Positions 49,145-56,945 of a stretch of DNA of 64,000 nucleotides are shown here, one piece after another. Source of the stretch: a virus (lineage: Duplodnaviria > Heunggongvirae > Uroviricota > Caudoviricetes). A program made the translations under genes and the position numbers. The stretch lies in IMG/VR virus record IMGVR_UViG_3300010357_001332, one strand, 5' to 3'. A model generated the notes under the pieces. The model was not told the origin of the DNA and did not search any database. It saw only the letters and a program-made list of their open reading frames with translations. Each line of letters begins with the position of its first letter. The stretch's first letter is position 1.

Positions 49145-49576
49145 ATGAAATTAAAAATAAATTTAGAAAAATTACCTCCTACATATGACTCACTTATTAT
49201 AGACAGATTAGAAAAGAAAAATCTACCTTCTTGTATGGGTGGAATGCTTCTTCCTATTTTAAATCAGATAGAAGAAATAGAAGACACAGATATTATAGCA
49301 CCTACTGAAAGTATACCAGAAATCAATCGAGCGAATGTAGATCTAACAGAAGTTTGTGCTAATTCTGACAAAGTCCTTACAGGAAATAGTATGACTGTTT
49401 CTGGTTTAAAACATATACTAGCATTTAAAGAATCTAAGGCAAATGCTTTTGTAGACCAATGTGAAAAATGCATTAATTGTACGTATATAGAAGTATGTAA
49501 TAATCTAACACGCAATACACTACAATCATTTGCAATAATGCAATCTTTATCAATTAAAGGAGTATCGAATGAATAA
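49145..49576 (+). CDS. Hypothetical protein with Cys cluster
   Basis: CEKCINC...C; ATG 49145 preferred. Confidence 0.5.
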   Translation: MKLKINLEKLPPTYDSLIIDRLEKKNLPSCMGGMLLPILNQIEEIEDTDIIAPTESIPEINRANVDLTEVCANSDKVLTGNSMTVSGLKHILAFKESKANAFVDQCEKCINCTYIEVCNNLTRNTLQSFAIMQSLSIKGVSNE

Positions 49577-50660
49577 ATTCTTTAGATTTATAGGTTTGGG
49601 TCAATGCGGTCTACGAATATCTCAAGAATTTGAAAAAATGGGATTTTATACGTCTATTATTAATTCTGACGAAATAGATGAAAGAGGATATGAGATAGAA
49701 TCCGATAGATTGCTTGTTTTAAAAGGAACAGGAACAGGTAAATCTTTAAAGATAGGAAAACAAATTATAGAAAATAATAAAAGTAAATTTGAATCCTTTA
49801 TCAGAAAGAATTGCAATAAGAATGGTGTTACAATCTTTATTGCAGGAGGTGGTGGAGGAACAGGTGGATCTTTTATTGCTCCTGCAGTAGAATATACAAA
49901 AAGTTTAGGGTATAAAGTAGGCGTAATTTATACTCTTCCACCTAAAATGCTAGGCATCGTAACAGCAAAAAATTCCTTGATTACTTTAAAAGAACTTTTA
50001 AAACTTGAAACAGATTTCTTTATGCTGGTAGATAATGAATTATTAATAGAAGAAGTAGGAAAAGATGATACTTGGTGGGGTAAGATAAATAGAATGATAT
50101 TATCTACTTTCTATTCATCTACTGAAATTATACGTGAAAATAAAACAGCTCAACAAGGTTTAGGTTCTATAGATAGAGGTGAGGTAATTAGAAGTTTAAC
50201 TTATGGAAAAGGTTGTACAGATATTAGAAGATACTATCTAACCACAGAAGATTGTGGAAAAAGTGAAGAGGAGCTAAGTACTTTACTTTTTCATCCTCAA
50301 CTTGTAGAAGGATATAATTATAAAGAATCCAAATGTTATTTGGTATCGATAGACGTACCACAATCTGGAAATTATAGCTTGATATCAAAGAAAATATTTG
50401 ATATTATAAAGCATCGCGTAGGTAATGCTATATCAATATTGGGTATGTTTACAGATCCACTTTTAAAAGATTCTGTTAAAGTAACAATTATAAATTCTGG
50501 ATTACAATTACCTAAAATACTCCAATCTAGAATAAAGAATCTAAGAAGAGATGAAAATGCTTTTCAACATAAACAAGAAAAGGAGGATCAAACTATTCAA
50601 GTTATTTCAGAATTAACATTTGATGAAGATCTCTCACTAGATAAAGACTTTCAACTATAA
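49569..50660 (+). CDS. Tubulin/FtsZ-superfamily GTPase (PhuZ/TubZ-like)
   Basis: IGLGQCG, INSD, GTGTGK, signature GGGGGTGGS, VDN. Confidence 0.85.
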   Translation: MNKFFRFIGLGQCGLRISQEFEKMGFYTSIINSDEIDERGYEIESDRLLVLKGTGTGKSLKIGKQIIENNKSKFESFIRKNCNKNGVTIFIAGGGGGTGGSFIAPAVEYTKSLGYKVGVIYTLPPKMLGIVTAKNSLITLKELLKLETDFFMLVDNELLIEEVGKDDTWWGKINRMILSTFYSSTEIIRENKTAQQGLGSIDRGEVIRSLTYGKGCTDIRRYYLTTEDCGKSEEELSTLLFHPQLVEGYNYKESKCYLVSIDVPQSGNYSLISKKIFDIIKHRVGNAISILGMFTDPLLKDSVKVTIINSGLQLPKILQSRIKNLRRDENAFQHKQEKEDQTIQVISELTFDEDLSLDKDFQL

Positions 50661-50688: not shown

Positions 50689-51303
50689 ATGAATTCTAAT
50701 GTAGAAACATTATATGTAGAATATACGCAAGAAAAAAATACTTTTAAGAAAGAAAGAATTCTAGGTAAAATATTTAAATGTTATGAACCTTTATCTAATA
50801 AACTTTCTTATAAATATTCCAGGATTTTCCCATCATATGAAGCAGAGGATTGGAAAATCTTGGTAAATCTAGGAATATGGGAAGGAGTTAATAAAACTCC
50901 TACTAAAGAATTAGTTAGAAAATATATCTACTTTAGAATAAAGCATCAAATTGCAAAAGAAATACAACTTATAACAGCTAGAAAGCAAACTTATTTTCAT
51001 GAGGTAGAATTAGATTCTGTTATTATTTGTCCAGAAAATTCTGAAGAAACTCGTAAGATTACTAAATTAGATATAGAAGCTGCTATAAATAAATTACCAG
51101 ATAAAACAAAACAGATTATTAAATTATGGATGGATGATGTTCCAGTATGTCCTGATTCAGCCAAATCATCTTTAATGCAAGCATCAATATGTGATGAAGT
51201 TAATCTTTCTTTTCCAGCAGTTTACTTTAGATTAGAAAGAGCATTTGAATTGTTGTATTGTTATCTATCAGATTATAAGGAAAGTATTTATGAGGAATGG
51301 TAG
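50689..51303 (+). CDS. Sigma-70/ECF-like RNA polymerase sigma factor
   Basis: Region 2-like LGIWEG...YIYFRIK; region 4 AINKLPDKTKQII...SFPAVYFRL. Confidence 0.65.
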   Translation: MNSNVETLYVEYTQEKNTFKKERILGKIFKCYEPLSNKLSYKYSRIFPSYEAEDWKILVNLGIWEGVNKTPTKELVRKYIYFRIKHQIAKEIQLITARKQTYFHEVELDSVIICPENSEETRKITKLDIEAAINKLPDKTKQIIKLWMDDVPVCPDSAKSSLMQASICDEVNLSFPAVYFRLERAFELLYCYLSDYKESIYEEW

Positions 51304-51502
51304 AAATATTTGTATCTATATGTCTGATTATAACCTTTATTGTTCTTTAGATAAAGAGGTTAGAGAACTATATTATAAAAAATATGGTCAAGCTCTTTCC
51401 AAAAGCGAAGTGATTAATAAAGGATTAGCAGTTTTAAAAGATACATTAACTAAATCAGAAAATCTTTCTGAGCTACCCAAATATAGCAGGATATTCAAGT
51501 GA
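51290..51502 (+). CDS. Ribbon-helix-helix-like DNA-binding protein
   Basis: NICIYMS strand...LSKSEVINKGL; ATG 51290 preferred. Confidence 0.5.
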   Translation: MRNGRNICIYMSDYNLYCSLDKEVRELYYKKYGQALSKSEVINKGLAVLKDTLTKSENLSELPKYSRIFK

Positions 51503-53952
51503 TAATTTCAGATAAAATATATATTCCATTATGTAAGTTAGGTGCTAAAGCAAATGATTTAGCTAAGATTTTTACCTATCAAAATCCAGAATATTTTGAA
51601 AAATCTAAAATGGGTTTTAGCACCACAAAATGCAGTCCTTTTCTTGCACATTATGCTTTTCAAGAATCCGAAACAAAGGAAAAATGCATAGTAGTACCTA
51701 GAGGTGCTATTAAGAAAGTTAAAACTTTTCTAGAAAAGAATAATATATCCTTACGCCACTTAGATAACAGAAATGAAGGTAAAGATATAGATATCGAGTT
51801 AACAGACACAAGATTAGAACCCCAGCAGTTAGAAATCATAGAGCTTTTAAAAGCTAATGAGGGTGGATTGATAGAAATGCTACCGGGCGGTGGGAAGACA
51901 ATTGCTGCTTTGGGTTTTATCTCAAAAGTAAAAAAATCTACTCTTATTCTAGTACATGAACATAGACTTAGAACACAATGGGAAGAAGAAATTAAAAGAA
52001 GACTTCAAGGAGATTTTACTTTAGGAAGATTAGATGGTGACGAGAAACGGGAAGGTGATATAACAATCGGAATTATTAATTCCGTTTATCTGATGTATAA
52101 AGAAAATAAAGATATCTTTTCAAAATATGGTGTAGTTATAGTCGATGAATGCTTTCCTTGGTATTCTAAAGTATTAACTAATTCTGGATATAAAAATATT
52201 AAAGATGTACAAAAAGGAGATATTGTTCTAACTACGAATGAGACTACTAAAGAATTAGAATGGAAATCTGTAGTTAACAATATACAAAAAAAATCAAGAA
52301 AAAATCTTATAAGTATAAAACTTAATAATGGTAAAAGTATTGTTTGTACAGAAGATCATAACATATATACTACTAAAGGATGGATATCAGCTAAAAATCT
52401 TGTATTAAATGATGAACTTATTACTGTGGATACTATTATTTATGGAAGAACTATCGAGAAGAAAAAAGAAAAACAAAGTGATTGCAATTATTCCCTGTTA
52501 CATTTGTGGAAAAGATGTGGAAATATTATCTGGAACTCAAACAAAGGAAACTTACAGACTGACAGGAAGAGCATATTGTTCAAGGGAATGTTCAAAAGCT
52601 TATGTCAGAAAAACGAGCAGCGAGACAATGACAAGAACAAATTTGAAATATCGAGATATTATTGTCAAAAGAATGTTGGAAAACAATCCTTCAAAGGATC
52701 CAGAGATAGCAAAAAAAGCTGTACAAAAAAATCGAGAAAATGGTACTTACGATTTAAATTGTTTCGAACATTGCGGAAATGGGCGGGCATGTTCAAAAGA
52801 ACATCAATCTTTATTAGATTCTCTGAATTTCATACAAGATATTTGGATAAAAGAATGTCCAGTTCCTACCAAAATGGGAAGAACTTCAGGATATCCAACT
52901 TGTTACAAATTGGATATTGGTTGCAAAGAATTAAAAATTGGAATAGAAGTAGATGGGGATACTCATTTAAACAAACAACAGATACAATTAGACAAAAAGA
53001 AGGATATATTCTTACAAGGATTGGGGTGGAAAGTATTACGCTTTACTCACTCGCAGATTCACGAAAACTTGACATCTTGCGTGGCGAAGATTATGTCTAT
53101 GATCTTACAATAGAAGATAATCATAACTATTTTGTGGAAAATATATTAGTACATAATTGCCATCATACACCAGCAAAAATGTTTGAATTAGTAGTAAATA
53201 ATATACCTGCTAAATATAGAATAGGTTTAACAGGTACTGTTAAAAGAAAAGATCAAAAAGAAATATTAATGTTCGATATTTTAGGCCCTGTTCTTATTTC
53301 TATAGGAGCAGAGGACTTGAAACATCGTGTTACTTCTTTTACCTATGAAATAGTAGAGACTAATTGTAAAATAGATGCACCTACAAGAAAACTATGGGCT
53401 GATGGTGCAAGAGTAACAAAAGTAGATTATGTTTCTCTTTTAAGCCTACTGGTTAAAAATCAGCAAAGAAATACTATAATTTTAGAAAAAATTATAGAAT
53501 CCATAAAAGAAGGATATAAGCCTTTAATATTATCAGATAGAGTAGATCATTGTAAATATCTTTATCAATATTTATTAGATTTAGGATATAATGTTGTATT
53601 ATTAATAGGAGCTACACGCAAGCAATCTAATTGGGAAGAAATCAGACAAGATAATAGCATACAAGCTATTGTAGCACAGCGAAGCATCGCTGAAGAAGGT
53701 CTAGATTACCCTTCTCTATCCGCACTGCATTTAACCTGTCCATCTACTAATTTACCAAAACTAAAACAAAGAATAGGACGTATTAGACGTGTAGCAGAAG
53801 ATAAGATATTACTACCTAAAGTATACGATTATGCAGATAATGCAGTACAATTAAAAGATCAATTTGGAAAGCTTCAGTTTCCATTAAAGAGATCGGCAAG
53901 ATCTCGTGAAAGTTTTTATAAAAAGTTACAAGAGGAATATGAAAGTGCTTAA
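51499..53952 (+). CDS. SF2 (UvsW/XPB-like) helicase containing an intein
   Basis: PGGGKT, VDE|CHH, GLTGT, EEGLDYP, QRIGRIRR; GTG start. Confidence 0.9.
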   Translation: MIISDKIYIPLCKLGAKANDLAKIFTYQNPEYFEKSKMGFSTTKCSPFLAHYAFQESETKEKCIVVPRGAIKKVKTFLEKNNISLRHLDNRNEGKDIDIELTDTRLEPQQLEIIELLKANEGGLIEMLPGGGKTIAALGFISKVKKSTLILVHEHRLRTQWEEEIKRRLQGDFTLGRLDGDEKREGDITIGIINSVYLMYKENKDIFSKYGVVIVDECFPWYSKVLTNSGYKNIKDVQKGDIVLTTNETTKELEWKSVVNNIQKKSRKNLISIKLNNGKSIVCTEDHNIYTTKGWISAKNLVLNDELITVDTIIYGRTIEKKKEKQSDCNYSLLHLWKRCGNIIWNSNKGNLQTDRKSILFKGMFKSLCQKNEQRDNDKNKFEISRYYCQKNVGKQSFKGSRDSKKSCTKKSRKWYLRFKLFRTLRKWAGMFKRTSIFIRFSEFHTRYLDKRMSSSYQNGKNFRISNLLQIGYWLQRIKNWNRSRWGYSFKQTTDTIRQKEGYILTRIGVESITLYSLADSRKLDILRGEDYVYDLTIEDNHNYFVENILVHNCHHTPAKMFELVVNNIPAKYRIGLTGTVKRKDQKEILMFDILGPVLISIGAEDLKHRVTSFTYEIVETNCKIDAPTRKLWADGARVTKVDYVSLLSLLVKNQQRNTIILEKIIESIKEGYKPLILSDRVDHCKYLYQYLLDLGYNVVLLIGATRKQSNWEEIRQDNSIQAIVAQRSIAEEGLDYPSLSALHLTCPSTNLPKLKQRIGRIRRVAEDKILLPKVYDYADNAVQLKDQFGKLQFPLKRSARSRESFYKKLQEEYESA
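52150..53157 (+). mobile_element. Intein (336 aa) in the DExH motif of the helicase
   Basis: VIVDE|CFPWYSKV...CTEDHNIYT...YVYDLTIEDNHNYFVENILVHN|CHH. Confidence 0.92.
52442..53113 (+). CDS. DUF559/Vsr-like endonuclease with N-terminal Zn finger, nested in the +1 frame of the intein
   Basis: PCYICG...YCSREC, NNPSKDPEI, YKLDIG..KIGIEVDGDTH..DKKKD..L..LGWKVLRF; ATG 52442 (or 52409). Confidence 0.85.
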   Translation: MEELSRRKKKNKVIAIIPCYICGKDVEILSGTQTKETYRLTGRAYCSRECSKAYVRKTSSETMTRTNLKYRDIIVKRMLENNPSKDPEIAKKAVQKNRENGTYDLNCFEHCGNGRACSKEHQSLLDSLNFIQDIWIKECPVPTKMGRTSGYPTCYKLDIGCKELKIGIEVDGDTHLNKQQIQLDKKKDIFLQGLGWKVLRFTHSQIHENLTSCVAKIMSMILQ

Positions 53953-53994: not shown

Positions 53995-54765
53995 ATGGAT
54001 ACGCAAGAACAACAAATTTCTCTCAATGAGAAATCATTAGATAAAAATGCAAAAGTAAGTAGAAATTTTGAAAATAGAACAGAATTGGAAACACAAGAGT
54101 TATATGATACAATAAAAGAAGCAGTATTGTGTGCTCAAGATCCTCAAAACGATGATTCTGATAAAGCACTGGCCTTTATTGTATTTGTATTTGATCCTCT
54201 TATCAGAAAGATAGCAGGAAAGATCTACTTTTATATCAAAGATTGTGAAGAATATGAGGATATTCTTCAAGAAACTTACGCTACCTTTATACGATTAGTA
54301 TATGGGTATAATCCTTCCATTTCCGCCTTCCCTTATTACATTAGAAATATGTTACCAAGACAAGTTAAAGCATGGAGTCAAAGAACAAAAAGAAAATCTT
54401 ACATTCCAGTAGATACTGTTATAGTTGATAATGCAATAGCAGATCCTTTTATGAATAGTAAGGATAGTGTTTATGAGAGATATAATAGCTATGTAATGCA
54501 AGAAGAATATAAAGAATTTATTATGCAAAGAGCAGAAAGAAAAACAAAGAGTAATACAGTAAAAGAAGTTTGCTATAATTACTTTTTGGGATCTTCCTCG
54601 TGTACTCAACTTGCAAAAAAATTAGGAATTTCATACCACGCAGTCTACGAAATTATACAAAGAATTAAACTGGAACTTCAAGTATTTTTAGAAGAAAATA
54701 CTCTTACAGAACTTGAAGCTAGCAGTATGTTTCAGGATGAGACAAAAATAGATATAGAAAAATGA
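53995..54765 (+). CDS. Sigma-70-family sigma factor
   Basis: DPLIRKIA, EDILQETY, AFPYYI, QLAKKLGISYHAV. Confidence 0.75.
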   Translation: MDTQEQQISLNEKSLDKNAKVSRNFENRTELETQELYDTIKEAVLCAQDPQNDDSDKALAFIVFVFDPLIRKIAGKIYFYIKDCEEYEDILQETYATFIRLVYGYNPSISAFPYYIRNMLPRQVKAWSQRTKRKSYIPVDTVIVDNAIADPFMNSKDSVYERYNSYVMQEEYKEFIMQRAERKTKSNTVKEVCYNYFLGSSSCTQLAKKLGISYHAVYEIIQRIKLELQVFLEENTLTELEASSMFQDETKIDIEK

Positions 54766-54956: not shown

Positions 54957-56945
54957 ATGTCAGATTTATTAACTAGCAGATTATTAGATCCCTCGTATTC
55001 TCCTTCAACTACTACTCTACCCACGTTTTTAACTCCTAGTAAAAAAGAATGCCCAGTACGTTTTACTACAGATATTGTCGAATTCTGTGAGCACGAAGAA
55101 TTTTTGGGTACTAAGCTAAGACCACTACAAAAAAACTTTCTTGTCGATTTATATTCATTAGACGATTCCGGATATCCAAAATACGATACAGGTGTTTTTA
55201 TAGCAGGTATGCGTGGTGGTAAATCTGCTTTAGCAGCATTTATAGCTGCATTTCAAGTGCACAGATTACTATCTATGAAGGAACCAGCATTAGAGCTGCA
55301 TCAGATTAAAGGGCAACGTCTTACTATACAATTTATTGCTAACTCCGAAGCACAAGCGAAAGAAACGGCGTATGCTACCTTTGAAACACTTATTACAGAT
55401 TCATTTTGGTATCAAAAGTATATAGGATGGTTAAAAGAGAGAGAAAGAGAAGAACATCTTCCTGTAAATTCATTATTTGAACATAAAGCACAAAGTATAG
55501 AATTTTATGAAAAGAATGTTGCTATTTTATCGCTAAATTCTAACTCCGCAACTGCAGTAGGTAAAACTTCAGCATGCTGTATATTTGATGAGCTTTCTCG
55601 TTTTGATGTAGCGGAGAATGATATACAAGCTAAATCACAAAAGCGTGTTGCACAAGCTATTTATGACGGTGTAGCTAAAGCAGCAACATCTCTAATGCCT
55701 TTTTCTAAGGTTGTTACTATTACATCTCCTATGTATGAAGATGATTATGGCATGAGATTATTATATCAATCTGGTACATTTAAAGGCGGAGAACAAAGTG
55801 GTATTATTCATACTCTAAGAAGGCAATACCCTGATAAAGCAGAAAGAATGCTAGGATATCATTATACTACTTTTGAAATGAATCCTCTAAAGGATGCAAA
55901 TGGCAATATTATACCAGGTGGATTTAGCCCAGAACAAAGCTTTTTCAAGAGTAAAAGAAATGAGAGTCCAGAAGGTTTTAGAAGAGACTTTCTTGCTATA
56001 CCACCCTCAGCAGTAAGTCCTTTCTTTGAATATCCTGAAAGAATAGAATCCTGTATTGTCAAGAATTCACAAGCAGTAATTTTCTTTGATAGGGAATTTC
56101 AAGAATCTGTAGACAGAGATGGATTACCACTAAGTGTTAGACATTATATAGGTAAATCTTTGGAAATAGTTAAGCCCAATAAAATGAAAGATTACTATAT
56201 ATCATGTGACCAGGGTGAAAAGAAAGATGCGTTTGTTGTAGCAATGGCACACGGAGAAACTATAGCTTATAGAACAGTAAATACAGAAGGAAAAGAAATA
56301 GAATATACTAGATATAAAGTTATAATAGATTTTATTGAATGTTGGGTTCCAGATCGAGAAAAACGTGTAACAGTATACTTTCCTAATGTAGAAGAAATCA
56401 TATTTAAACTCCACCAAAATTTTAATATTAAGAAAGTAGTATTTGACCAGTGGAATAGTACAGAATCTATTCAAAGATTATTTAGTAAAGGAATAATGAC
56501 AGAAAAAACTAATCCTTCTGAAAATCTAAAGAAATATGAGATTCTTAAGACATTATTTTATAATGGTCTTATAGAAATGCCTCAAAACGATAGGCTACTT
56601 AAAGAATTACGACAACTTAATTTGATACGTGGTCAGAAAGTTGATCACAGTTCTTCGGGAAGTTCGGATGCCTCCGATGCTCTAGCTAGAGTCGTATTCG
56701 AAGTATATATAAATGTATTGCAACAAGCGGTGCAAGGTAATGTTATTACTAATCCTATGCAGGTAGGCTTGCCCACATTAAGGGGCATTGCAGGGATGCA
56801 AGAATATATGAAGTCTCCTATGATAGCACCTACTGCTGGTTTACCTATTAATAGAACGCCAGGTAGTATAGGAGTAAGCAGTGTTTTTAGTAAAGGAACT
56901 AAAGCCCCAGAACAAAATGTCTTCCCAAATTTTCTACTTAAATAA
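54957..56945 (+). CDS. terL: Terminase large subunit
   Basis: Walker A AGMRGGKS, CIFDE, coupling ITSP, nuclease SCDQG..DAF, FDQWNS, SDASDA. Confidence 0.9.
   Translation: MSDLLTSRLLDPSYSPSTTTLPTFLTPSKKECPVRFTTDIVEFCEHEEFLGTKLRPLQKNFLVDLYSLDDSGYPKYDTGVFIAGMRGGKSALAAFIAAFQVHRLLSMKEPALELHQIKGQRLTIQFIANSEAQAKETAYATFETLITDSFWYQKYIGWLKEREREEHLPVNSLFEHKAQSIEFYEKNVAILSLNSNSATAVGKTSACCIFDELSRFDVAENDIQAKSQKRVAQAIYDGVAKAATSLMPFSKVVTITSPMYEDDYGMRLLYQSGTFKGGEQSGIIHTLRRQYPDKAERMLGYHYTTFEMNPLKDANGNIIPGGFSPEQSFFKSKRNESPEGFRRDFLAIPPSAVSPFFEYPERIESCIVKNSQAVIFFDREFQESVDRDGLPLSVRHYIGKSLEIVKPNKMKDYYISCDQGEKKDAFVVAMAHGETIAYRTVNTEGKEIEYTRYKVIIDFIECWVPDREKRVTVYFPNVEEIIFKLHQNFNIKKVVFDQWNSTESIQRLFSKGIMTEKTNPSENLKKYEILKTLFYNGLIEMPQNDRLLKELRQLNLIRGQKVDHSSSGSSDASDALARVVFEVYINVLQQAVQGNVITNPMQVGLPTLRGIAGMQEYMKSPMIAPTAGLPINRTPGSIGVSSVFSKGTKAPEQNVFPNFLLK

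Follow-up and report, generated by a model that had tools for sequence, protein, structure and literature searches.

A phage helicase intein with a putative homing-endonuclease gene overprinted in its +1 frame

In a 64,000-nucleotide stretch of phage DNA (IMG/VR record IMGVR_UViG_3300010357_001332; hereafter the window), a helicase gene of the SF2 DExH type holds a predicted class-1 intein whose middle is coding-competent in two frames. The helicase frame stays open throughout, and the +1 frame of the same strand carries a gene for a predicted Vsr/DUF559-type nuclease with a zinc ribbon. This two-frame layout is real and is maintained by selection. Most probably, the intein is a mobile one and has its homing endonuclease encoded by a gene of its own, overprinted on it. 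The features of the region are as follows, where a slash marks a junction between intein and extein.

51499..53952, + strand: helicase gene, SF2 DExH type (ORF; Pfam ResIII, Helicase_C and DEAD; PHROG 'DNA helicase')
51499..52149, + strand: N-extein, ending ...VVIVDE in Walker B / motif II (sequence; junction table)
52150..53157, + strand: predicted class-1 intein of 336 aa in the helicase frame, in motif II at DE/CH (Pfam; invariant residues; AlphaFold2)
52150..52440, + strand: N-terminal splicing lobe, intein residues about 1-97 (AlphaFold2)
52409..53113, + strand: putative homing-endonuclease gene in the +1 frame (ORF; Pfam DUF559; AlphaFold2; Foldseek)
52496..52591, + strand: predicted zinc ribbon of the nuclease, Cys30, Cys33 ... 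Cys57, Cys61 (invariant Cys; model)
52519..53001, + strand: helicase-frame filler, intein residues 124-284, open, with little conservation and no predicted structure (AlphaFold2; conservation; Pfam)
52796..53110, + strand: predicted Vsr/DUF559-type catalytic core, nuclease residues 130-234 (Pfam; 3hrl alignment; invariant columns; fold matches)
53011..53113, + strand: doubly constrained overlap, about 34 codons in both proteins (both models; conservation; alignments)
53011..53157, + strand: C-terminal splicing lobe, intein residues 288-336, blocks F and G, ending ...ILVHN (AlphaFold2; junction)
53158..53952, + strand: C-extein, beginning CHHTPAKMF (sequence; junction table)

The helicase precursor is 817 aa long and its spliced form would be 481 aa. 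An earlier note on this DNA, made from the letters alone, had reported a helicase frame open across the intein, and the ORF is indeed continuous from 51499 to 53952, which rules out a fractured gene or split intein with two host ORFs. By blastn, the whole helicase gene has no match among GenBank phages. Pfam detects ResIII, Intein_splicing (residues 225-553) and Helicase_C in the helicase-frame translation, and no endonuclease family. As read from the sequence, the intein starts at 52150 with TGC (Cys1) and ends at 53157 with CAT AAT (His-Asn), after which TGC CAT CAT follows. The match of 52150-53157 to Intein_splicing (PF14890) scores 72.4 bits against a cut-off of 35.8, with E about 4e-19 to 4.7e-20. 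The motif residues comprise Cys1, a block B TEDH with His70, His335-Asn336 and Cys+1; C1, H70, H335 and N336 are invariant in an alignment of 20 inteins, and the VHN/CH junction is common to nearly all relatives. In the AlphaFold2 model both Hint lobes (residues 1-93 and 288-336) are all-beta at pLDDT above 90, with strands as far as residue 93, pLDDT of 91-96 at residues 1-90 and 94-96 at the end of the model. Profile, motif residues and predicted two-lobe Hint fold together identify a class-1 intein, from which protein splicing would be expected.

The nested ORF runs for 234 codons from ATG 52409, or for 223 from ATG 52442. Its start is offset by 910 nucleotides (3x303+1) from that of the helicase and it is therefore in the +1 frame. 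Its stop codon, TAG at 53111-53113, falls within intein block F (YDLTIED), where the earlier note had placed the end of the nuclease. The translation matches DUF559 (PF04480) over residues 166-231 at E 1.2e-10 (score 41.6 bits, cut-off 20.6) and is modeled by AlphaFold2 with a pLDDT of 91.2. Near its N-terminus the model has zinc-ribbon strands at residues 24-29 and 36-40, and the four zinc-ribbon cysteines are invariant across 27 sequences. The core contains YK.D169, E180-x-D182-G-x-x-H186, D195, K198, W207 and R211. Nucleases of this superfamily bear a composite EDxHD motif of acidic and histidine catalytic residues (Taylor et al. 2011, PMC3239194). Among the candidates for such a motif, E180 and D182 are invariant while D169, H186 and D195 occur in at least 90% of the 27 relatives; all five are present in the window. 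Indeed, every residue that is invariant in the alignment of the 27 relatives, K198 included, has been retained.

Fold comparison points in the same direction. The best Foldseek matches are 3r3p (I-Bth0305I), 3hrl (DUF559) and 1vsr (Vsr) at probabilities of 0.98-1.00, with TM values by target of 0.68-0.70 for 3r3p, 0.77 for 3hrl and 0.40-0.77 over the top matches. The Foldseek E-values are modest (5e-3 to 1e-2) because the match covers only the last ~110 residues. At the level of sequence, a phmmer comparison of PDB sequences with the single nuclease yields 3hrl as the sole match; with the family profile, 3hrl is matched at E 3.4e-7 and 3r3p at E 0.41, so that the link to I-Bth0305I rests on fold and not on sequence. 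Pfam, AlphaFold2, Foldseek and the invariant residues thus bear out the earlier description of a 223-234 aa protein with a zinc finger, a helical part and a DUF559/Vsr core, and support a conserved Vsr/DUF559-type nuclease that is confidently predicted to fold. Such a protein would be expected to cut DNA.

Read in the helicase frame, the middle of the intein is of a different nature. Residues 124-284 are modeled at pLDDT < 50 and without secondary structure, in keeping with the earlier impression of off-frame sequence that lacks LAGLIDADG and HNH. In a comparison among relatives, conservation of this filler does not exceed that imposed by the nuclease frame. A function for the helicase-frame filler was considered and set aside, as it has neither structure nor conservation of its own; it could serve as a mere spacer, which is indistinguishable from having no function at all. 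The exception to this division is the segment 53011..53113, which is structured in both the nuclease and intein models and where local conservation peaks in each frame. Here, the same DNA encodes the opening strands of the C-terminal Hint lobe (RIGVESITLY...YDLT) and, for the nuclease, its final strand and helices (LGWKVLRF...).

Selection acts on both frames, in different ways. A risk site may be defined as a dicodon in which a T-ending upstream nuclease codon would create a stop in the helicase frame. In the window none of the 75 risk sites ends in T, as opposed to 64 of 158 other sites (41%); at that rate, the probability of 0/75 is about 1e-17 by the author's own arithmetic. Across 28 loci, T is found at 0 of 1790 risk sites versus 28% of 3976 others. 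Synonymous shuffles of the nuclease ORF generate a mean of 14.2 helicase-frame stops, and not one of 2000 was stop-free. The absence of T at risk sites and the shuffles exclude a helicase frame that is open by chance, which the earlier note had considered very unlikely from length and composition. The nuclease frame, in turn, is selected at the protein level. Among relatives, differences amount to 0.49, 0.44 and 0.63 at the first, second and third positions of nuclease codons, so that the third varies most. The nuclease frame has an amino-acid identity of 0.38 and the helicase frame one of 0.21; the former is higher for all 378 of 378 pairs, as well as in every 10-codon bin with the sole exception of the closing 4-codon stub.

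The layout extends well beyond the window. With the single nuclease as query, IMG/VR and the GTDB genomes each returned one weak partial match, and a four-sequence alignment was needed to recover relatives. Other inteins with nested DUF559-type ORFs, which the earlier note had proposed to search for, do exist: the same +1 layout at DE/C...HN/CH is present in three isolate Vibrio phage genomes and in IMG/VR, where the 28 loci retrieved include duplicates and reduce to 24 distinct ones. The +1 offset recurs in IMG/VR loci at 30-50% identity. The host genes encode helicases, SNF2 ATPases and clamp loaders; in the clamp-loader relatives (L020, L024) the insertion lies in the Walker B region. Nuclease distances follow those of the splicing lobes (rho 0.57) more than those of the exteins (rho 0.22). 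Two metagenomic loci, L017 and L043, have N-extein, N-lobe and nuclease in one continuous frame; no in-frame form occurs among the best 150 of 951 strong family clusters. Relatives that are encoded as free-standing nuclease genes adjoin or overlap helicase genes (L011, L033), which fits the earlier proposal that a nuclease gene invaded a mini-intein out of frame, a history made plausible by these sequences and not proven by them.

An intein-free allele is also at hand, and the distribution of the element is sporadic. The syntenic sibling phage L042, the only intein-less relative found, has an uninterrupted 480-aa helicase that reads DE/VHHLPAHMF and is 68.6% identical to the spliced helicase (extein identity 69%). 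Its empty-site DNA is GATGAA followed by GTTCACCAT; this phage with the intein precisely deleted would read GATGAA followed by TGCCATCAT.

Less clear is how the nuclease is translated. The candidate +1 starts are ATG 52409/52412, ATG 52442 and GTG 52478, and a Shine-Dalgarno-like motif is absent before all four in the window copy. In the same phage such a motif precedes 30 of 53 long ORFs, and some clearly essential genes, e.g. terminase, lack one. Within the family, 18 of 28 loci have it ahead of the nuclease start, where the background is 0.11; this statistic is somewhat favorable since starts were picked by eye as the nearest one upstream of the first CxxC. The independent translation claimed in the earlier note is thus supported for relatives, as judged from their start regions, while in the window copy the lack of a motif tells against it; internal initiation would still be the route there, and expression may be weak or absent. 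Contigs from an RNA library (X15) cover 52274-52494 and 53011-53161; they are no proof of transcription, strand or starts, as DNA carry-over is possible.

In the favored account of a mobile intein with an overprinted endonuclease, ribosomes in the helicase frame would read the mRNA through the whole intein. Its two Hint lobes (residues 1-97 and 288-336) would fold together around ~190 residues of flexible, meaningless loop on which the only demand is that it contain no stop codons. Splicing at Cys1, Asn336 and Cys+1 would join ...VDE to CHH..., and Cys+1 would complete the DECH box and so restore helicase motif II. From the same mRNA, internal +1-frame starts would give a protein of 211-234 aa, depending on the start used, in which a zinc ribbon and a helical DNA-binding part precede the Vsr/DUF559 (EDxHD-like) nuclease. 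During co-infection the nuclease would cleave helicase alleles that lack the intein, for instance the DEVHH allele of the sibling, and repair off the intein-bearing copy would spread intein and nuclease gene as one unit.

Three other explanations deserve consideration. The layout may be real and the nuclease gene silent, so that the intein lasts by splicing and the +1 ORF has yet to decay. The homing cycle predicts decay of the endonuclease after an element becomes fixed, and the four motif-less starts, unlike those of many genes of this phage, would suit such a relic, as would the 10 of 28 family members that likewise have no motif. Yet the ORF is intact over its 234 codons, the residues invariant in relatives (the four cysteines, E180, D182 and K198 among them) are kept, H186 is also present and the predicted fold is a confident one. 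Moreover, terminase does without a Shine-Dalgarno motif too, and the intein-less sibling allele means that targets are available. A silent relic is accordingly unlikely, albeit the most serious of the three.

Considerably less likely still is a programmed +1 ribosomal frameshift that would yield N-extein, N-terminal intein lobe and nuclease as one fused protein, with no independent initiation. Apart from the missing motif in the window copy, this idea draws on L017 and L043, whose continuous frame means that genes can be arranged to encode such a fusion. Against it, a nuclease-frame stop (TAA 52406-52408) lies directly 5' of the first ATG, and similarly in L001, L003, L012 and others; the CxxC is closely preceded by a conserved start, which has its motif in 18 of 28 loci; and no shared slippery sequence was noticed in the start regions when read by eye. 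The last possibility, an ordinary in-frame endonuclease intein displaced by two compensating assembly or sequencing errors, is an a priori one for any metagenome assembly and was the refutation foreseen in the earlier note. It has next to no probability left. Contigs from three other studies span both overlap ends with 0 differences and 0 gaps (stretches without contig cover in single runs being uninformative), a stop-free helicase frame is not expected by chance, and the same +1 offset recurs in the isolate Vibrio phages and the 24 IMG/VR loci. The artefact is refuted by these observations. A bolder extension of the overprinted-endonuclease account, for which the chances seem slightly less than even, is an old and large lineage with the +1 overprint as a stable ancestral design. 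The ribosome-binding site of the nuclease would lie in conserved intein residues, its C-terminus would be co-encoded with block F, and recognition of the DNA for the DE-x-H Walker B box would allow jumps among unrelated ATPase families, namely SF2 helicases, SNF2 ATPases and clamp loaders.

Whether this architecture had been described before was left in doubt by the earlier note. The general architecture is already published, since the Gogarten laboratory described inteins with out-of-frame endonucleases in 2025-2026 (10.1101/2025.01.02.630785; 10.64898/2026.09.14.751524); the present combination is not. With an ORF between the splicing blocks and an uninterrupted extein frame, the helicase case belongs to the class of inteins with a separate-frame endonuclease. 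Gosselin, Arsenault and Gogarten (bioRxiv 10.1101/2025.01.02.630785) report 'non-canonical' actinobacteriophage inteins with the endonuclease in a separate frame or strand, and propose that a free-standing endonuclease gene invaded the intein; they also note a sporadic distribution, which the helicase element shares. Those inteins are likewise contiguous and presumably splicing, with the endonuclease ORF outside the intein frame. They differ in that their VSR-like endonucleases are antisense only, whereas here the Vsr-like gene shares the strand of its host gene and uses the +1 frame; their sole same-strand out-of-frame case is endonuclease VII-like, in 'frame 3', in polymerase, capsid, terminase and thymidylate synthase genes of actinophages. 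The site here is the DExH box, the host genes encode helicases, SNF2 ATPases and clamp loaders, and the carriers are Vibrio phages as well as uncultured phages of many habitats.

A second case is the dnaX intein of cyanobacteria, whose out-of-frame endonuclease is of the LAGLIDADG family (Phillips, DeSimone and Gogarten, bioRxiv 10.64898/2026.09.14.751524); it was first noted, as cited therein, by Gorbalenya 1998. Like the helicase element, it combines overlapping frames, a disordered extein-frame filler and a confidently folded other-frame endonuclease with frame-specific selection and coexisting intein-free alleles. The insertion lies in the Walker B region of a clamp-loader gene, a site shared with L020 and L024. 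The differences are a Vsr/DUF559 nuclease instead of LAGLIDADG, a +1 frame versus its '+2 ORF', and phage versus cyanobacterial hosts. In fractured genes, the halves of a split intein flank a free-standing endonuclease gene of the Vsr-like (EDxHD) or GIY-YIG type (Dassa et al. 2009, PMC2677866). Together with I-Bth0305I, whose catalytic domain is the top fold match (PMC3239194), they place the same nuclease superfamily with inteins of phage-type DNA metabolism genes. Common to both is an overlap between the 3' end of the endonuclease gene and the downstream part of the intein, by 6-69 bp in fractured genes and by ~34 codons here. The host frame of fractured genes, however, is split into two genes rejoined by trans-splicing, whereas here it continues through the nuclease gene. 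The N-terminal part also differs, in that a zinc ribbon is predicted here and NUMOD-like signatures occur in I-Bth0305I. Lastly, the ShiLan type (PMC11855218), a hidden HNH endonuclease inside phage methylase genes, is similarly an out-of-frame ORF within a host gene whose frame stays open; it has no splicing domain, whereas the ORF here is surrounded by a complete predicted class-1 intein.

Out-of-frame intein endonucleases hence extend beyond actinophages and cyanobacterial dnaX, and a Vsr-type family uses the overprint, at a constant +1 offset, in many phages that infect Gram-negative and anaerobic hosts. As for annotation, none of the three Vibrio phage records examined lists the nested gene, and such apparent 'mini-inteins with a long linker' are misread. 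The nuclease, with the DNA for the conserved DExH box as its presumed target, and the loop-tolerant intein may be useful as tools. As a model of overlapping-gene evolution, the element joins stop avoidance in one frame to what would be a working protein in the other, with ~34 codons serving two predicted folds. Since free-standing relatives sit beside helicase genes and one-indel variants exist, the routes among free-standing, nested, split and in-frame endonucleases become testable.

The helicase gene and the nuclease gene nested inside its intein occupy two registers of the same strand:

51499-53952, + strand: helicase ORF, 817 codons
52409-53113, + strand: nested nuclease ORF, 234 codons, inside the helicase ORF and one base out of register with it

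By Pfam, the helicase ORF consists of ResIII/DEAD, Intein_splicing (residues 225-553) and Helicase_C domains in that order, with no endonuclease family match in the helicase frame of the intein, while the nested ORF is a DUF559 match (41.6 bits, cut-off 20.6). Read directly from the sequence, the intein begins at TGC 52150, preceded by ...GTC GAT GAA (V-D-E), and ends at CAT AAT 53157, followed by TGC CAT CAT (C-H-H). These boundaries place the insertion within helicase motif II, where D-E-C-H would remain after splicing. The nested ORF stops (53111-53113) inside intein block F, and the earlier note is correct in its coordinates and description.

With a +1 offset, a helicase-frame stop needs a nuclease codon ending in T followed by a codon beginning with AA, AG or GA. 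In the window, T is absent from all 75 such risk places, as against 41% T-ending codons among the other 158 nuclease codons; at that rate, by our own arithmetic, the probability of 0/75 is about 1e-17. When synonymous codons of the nuclease ORF were shuffled, the helicase frame acquired 14.2 stops on average and was stop-free in none of 2000 trials, and across 28 pooled loci T occupies 0 of 1790 risk sites versus 28% of 3976 other sites. Chance is excluded as the source of the two open frames, as the earlier note had argued from their improbability. That note also raised the prospect of compensating frameshift errors that put the nuclease in frame. Twenty public runs contain the stretch; they belong to 11 studies that sampled digesters, sludge, biofilm and wastewater, and contigs from three of the 11 span both overlap ends with 0 differences and 0 gaps; this agreement rules such errors out.

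The model of the +1 protein, built from an alignment of 27 relatives, has a mean pLDDT of 91.2; in it a two-strand zinc ribbon is followed by a series of helices and then by an alpha/beta core (residues 130-234). The best PDB matches of the core by Foldseek are the I-Bth0305I catalytic domain (3r3p), a DUF559 protein (3hrl) and E. coli Vsr, and the family sequence profile also matches 3hrl (E 3e-7). All family-invariant residues are kept in the window copy (C30, C33, C57, C61, E180, D182, K198, W207 and R211), as are D169, H186 and D195, each conserved in at least 90% of family members. In the helicase frame, the intein model (20 relatives) folds into two beta-rich lobes with pLDDT above 90 (residues 1-93 and 288-336), while residues 124-284 fall below 50 and have no secondary structure. 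The zinc finger, helical linker and DUF559/Vsr-type core proposed for the +1 frame, and the off-frame filler without endonuclease proposed for the middle of the intein, are both borne out.

The layout is not confined to this phage. An alignment-based IMG/VR scan for the nuclease returned 36 loci, of which 28 (24 distinct without duplicates) hold the nuclease ORF within a same-strand ORF of 650-1150 codons, always at the +1 offset. In GenBank phages, tblastn of the +1 protein matched 40 records, most of them from Vibrio phages, with identity of about 36%; among the 30 listed, the gene overlying each match is annotated as helicase, or as hypothetical or similar protein. The match in CP-T1, 159E43-1b and 1.088.O is likewise in the +1 frame of a helicase carrying an intein; the search for further inteins with nested DUF559 ORFs, proposed earlier as a check, yielded these three Vibrio phages along with the IMG/VR loci. 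In their records (NC_019457, CP-T1 gp10; OZ196825; MG592463) the nested gene is unannotated, and the gene that carries the intein appears as helicase or P-loop NTPase, the intein itself going unmentioned; other matches overlap genes called 'hypothetical protein' or 'coil containing protein'. Across 1.8 billion representatives, a profile search gave 951 clusters at E <=1e-30. A nuclease in frame midway in a long protein is absent from the best 150 of these, which are all 158-496 aa; viewed in its contig, the top match likewise lies at +1 within a helicase intein.

Nearly all nested loci share the intein junctions DE/CF... and ...VHN/CH (slashes mark the junctions). Their exteins are ResIII-type helicases, SNF2 ATPases and clamp-loader AAA+ proteins, so in at least three ATPase families the intein and nuclease unit sits at the Walker B DE-x-H site. 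Clamp-loader genes (AAA + DNA_pol3_delta2) carry it in loci L020 and L024, with DE(AH)/C...VHN/C, and probably also in L025, L030, L039 and L040; SNF2-type ATPases carry it in L035, L038 and L041, with the junction VSN/CH. The clamp-loader and SNF2 loci look like extein switching via the common Walker B box.

Selection acts on the two frames unequally. Aligned by codon, the 28 nested genes show differences of 0.49, 0.44 and 0.63 at the first, second and third nuclease codon positions, making the third position the free one; position 2, which is the helicase-frame third position, is under the strongest constraint. In the nuclease frame, amino-acid identity is 0.38 versus 0.21 in the helicase frame, and is higher in the former for 378 of 378 pairs and in all 10-codon bins, the sole exception being a 4-codon stub at the end. 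Unlike the rest of the overlap, the last ~34 codons (53011-53113), where the final strand and helices of the nuclease (LGWKVLRF...) overlap the first strands of the C-lobe (RIGVESI...YDLT), are conserved in both frames. Pairwise nuclease distances correlate with splicing-lobe distances at rho 0.57 versus 0.22 with extein distances, and the element is better conserved than its exteins (identity 0.40-0.43 versus 0.31). This pattern fits joint inheritance of nuclease and intein, with some movement between hosts.

Two routes to the nuclease may be weighed, frameshifting from the helicase frame and internal initiation. A nuclease-frame stop often lies directly upstream of the start (TAA 52406-52408 in the window), which speaks for internal initiation and against frameshifting. 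A Shine-Dalgarno-like tetramer stands 4-17 nt upstream of the start codon preceding the first CxxC in 18 of 28 loci (background 0.11), a favourable count since the starts were picked by us. Five relatives have it in one form (coordinates local to each IMG/VR locus):

L001, 2322-2344: Shine-Dalgarno-like GA(T/C)GAGGT
L002, 2490-2512: the same motif
L003, 2349-2371: the same motif
L012 and L022: the same motif

Read in the intein frame, GA(T/C)GAGGT encodes the conserved D-E-V directly after block B, so the ribosome-binding site of the nuclease would be built into conserved intein residues. The window nuclease has no such motif upstream of its candidate starts (52409, 52412, 52442 and 52478), and 30 of the 53 long ORFs of the phage have one. 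Translation of the window copy is the weakest link in the argument for expression.

Turning to mobility, the 179-kb IMG/VR contig L042, from a sibling phage, shows synteny with the window across a tubulin-like gene, two small genes, the helicase gene and a sigma-like gene. The 480-aa L042 helicase, 68.6% identical to the spliced window helicase, reads ...IIDE/VHHLP... with no intein; empty target sites therefore exist among relatives of the window phage. Free-standing members of the nuclease family also occur, in L011 and L033 immediately 5' of a helicase gene or overlapping its start:

L011, 3459-5590: free-standing nuclease-family gene directly upstream of helicase gene
L033, 3294-5061: free-standing nuclease-family gene overlapping start of helicase
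L028, 1963-4034: free-standing nuclease-family gene downstream of terminase gene

The L011 helicase is itself interrupted precisely at the DE/HH motif (...IIIDE, then out-of-frame ...GHHAAAP). An origin by invasion of a mini-intein by a free-standing endonuclease gene fits, the direction of this history being unproven, and the overall interpretation in the earlier note, an intein with an overprinted nuclease, is supported. Two metagenomic relatives (L017:2853-5116 and L043:420-2890) are one base off the usual arrangement: N-extein, intein N-lobe and nuclease share one continuous frame (397 and 552 codons), and the frame that encodes C-lobe and C-extein stays open through the nuclease, yet begins only near the nuclease 5' end. 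Candidate explanations are an indel error, gene breakage, a form resembling a split intein, or the 'one-indel' intermediate proposed by Gosselin et al.

Around the helicase, a tubulin/FtsZ-family GTPase gene (49569-50660; Pfam Tubulin, E 1e-9) lies three genes 5' and is kept in the sibling phage (L042:1342-2430); its product may be a PhuZ/TubZ-like phage cytoskeleton protein. The flanking genes resemble divergent sigma factors: the downstream one (53995-54765) has weak Sigma70_r2 and PHROG sigma-factor matches, and the upstream one (50689-51303) has no family match and a homologue retained in L042. The terminase large subunit (54957-56945), whose gene has no Shine-Dalgarno motif, matches terminases of GenBank phages (those of Streptomyces and Erwinia among others) only at ~25% identity. 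The window phage is only distantly related to cultured phages.

In actinophages, Gosselin, Arsenault and Gogarten (bioRxiv 10.1101/2025.01.02.630785) described inteins whose endonucleases are encoded outside the intein frame, namely LAGLIDADG and VSR-like ones on the antisense strand and endonuclease VII-like ones on the same strand in 'frame 3'; according to these authors, VSR-like endonucleases are elsewhere known from split inteins only. Phillips, DeSimone and Gogarten (bioRxiv 10.64898/2026.09.14.751524) analyse the dnaX intein of cyanobacteria, whose LAGLIDADG gene is out of frame and which, like the present case, has disordered filler, frame-specific selection and empty alleles alongside. 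Also known are HNH genes out of frame in methylases without a splicing domain (Arsenault et al., Genes 2025, PMC11855218) and, from fractured genes and introns, the Vsr-like EDxHD homing endonucleases (Dassa et al. 2009, PMC2677866; Taylor et al. 2011, PMC3239194). Full-text literature searches found no published report of helicase inteins that carry a Vsr-type gene on the same strand at +1. The intein with an out-of-frame endonuclease is a recently described architecture, of which the window locus is a well-documented further case.
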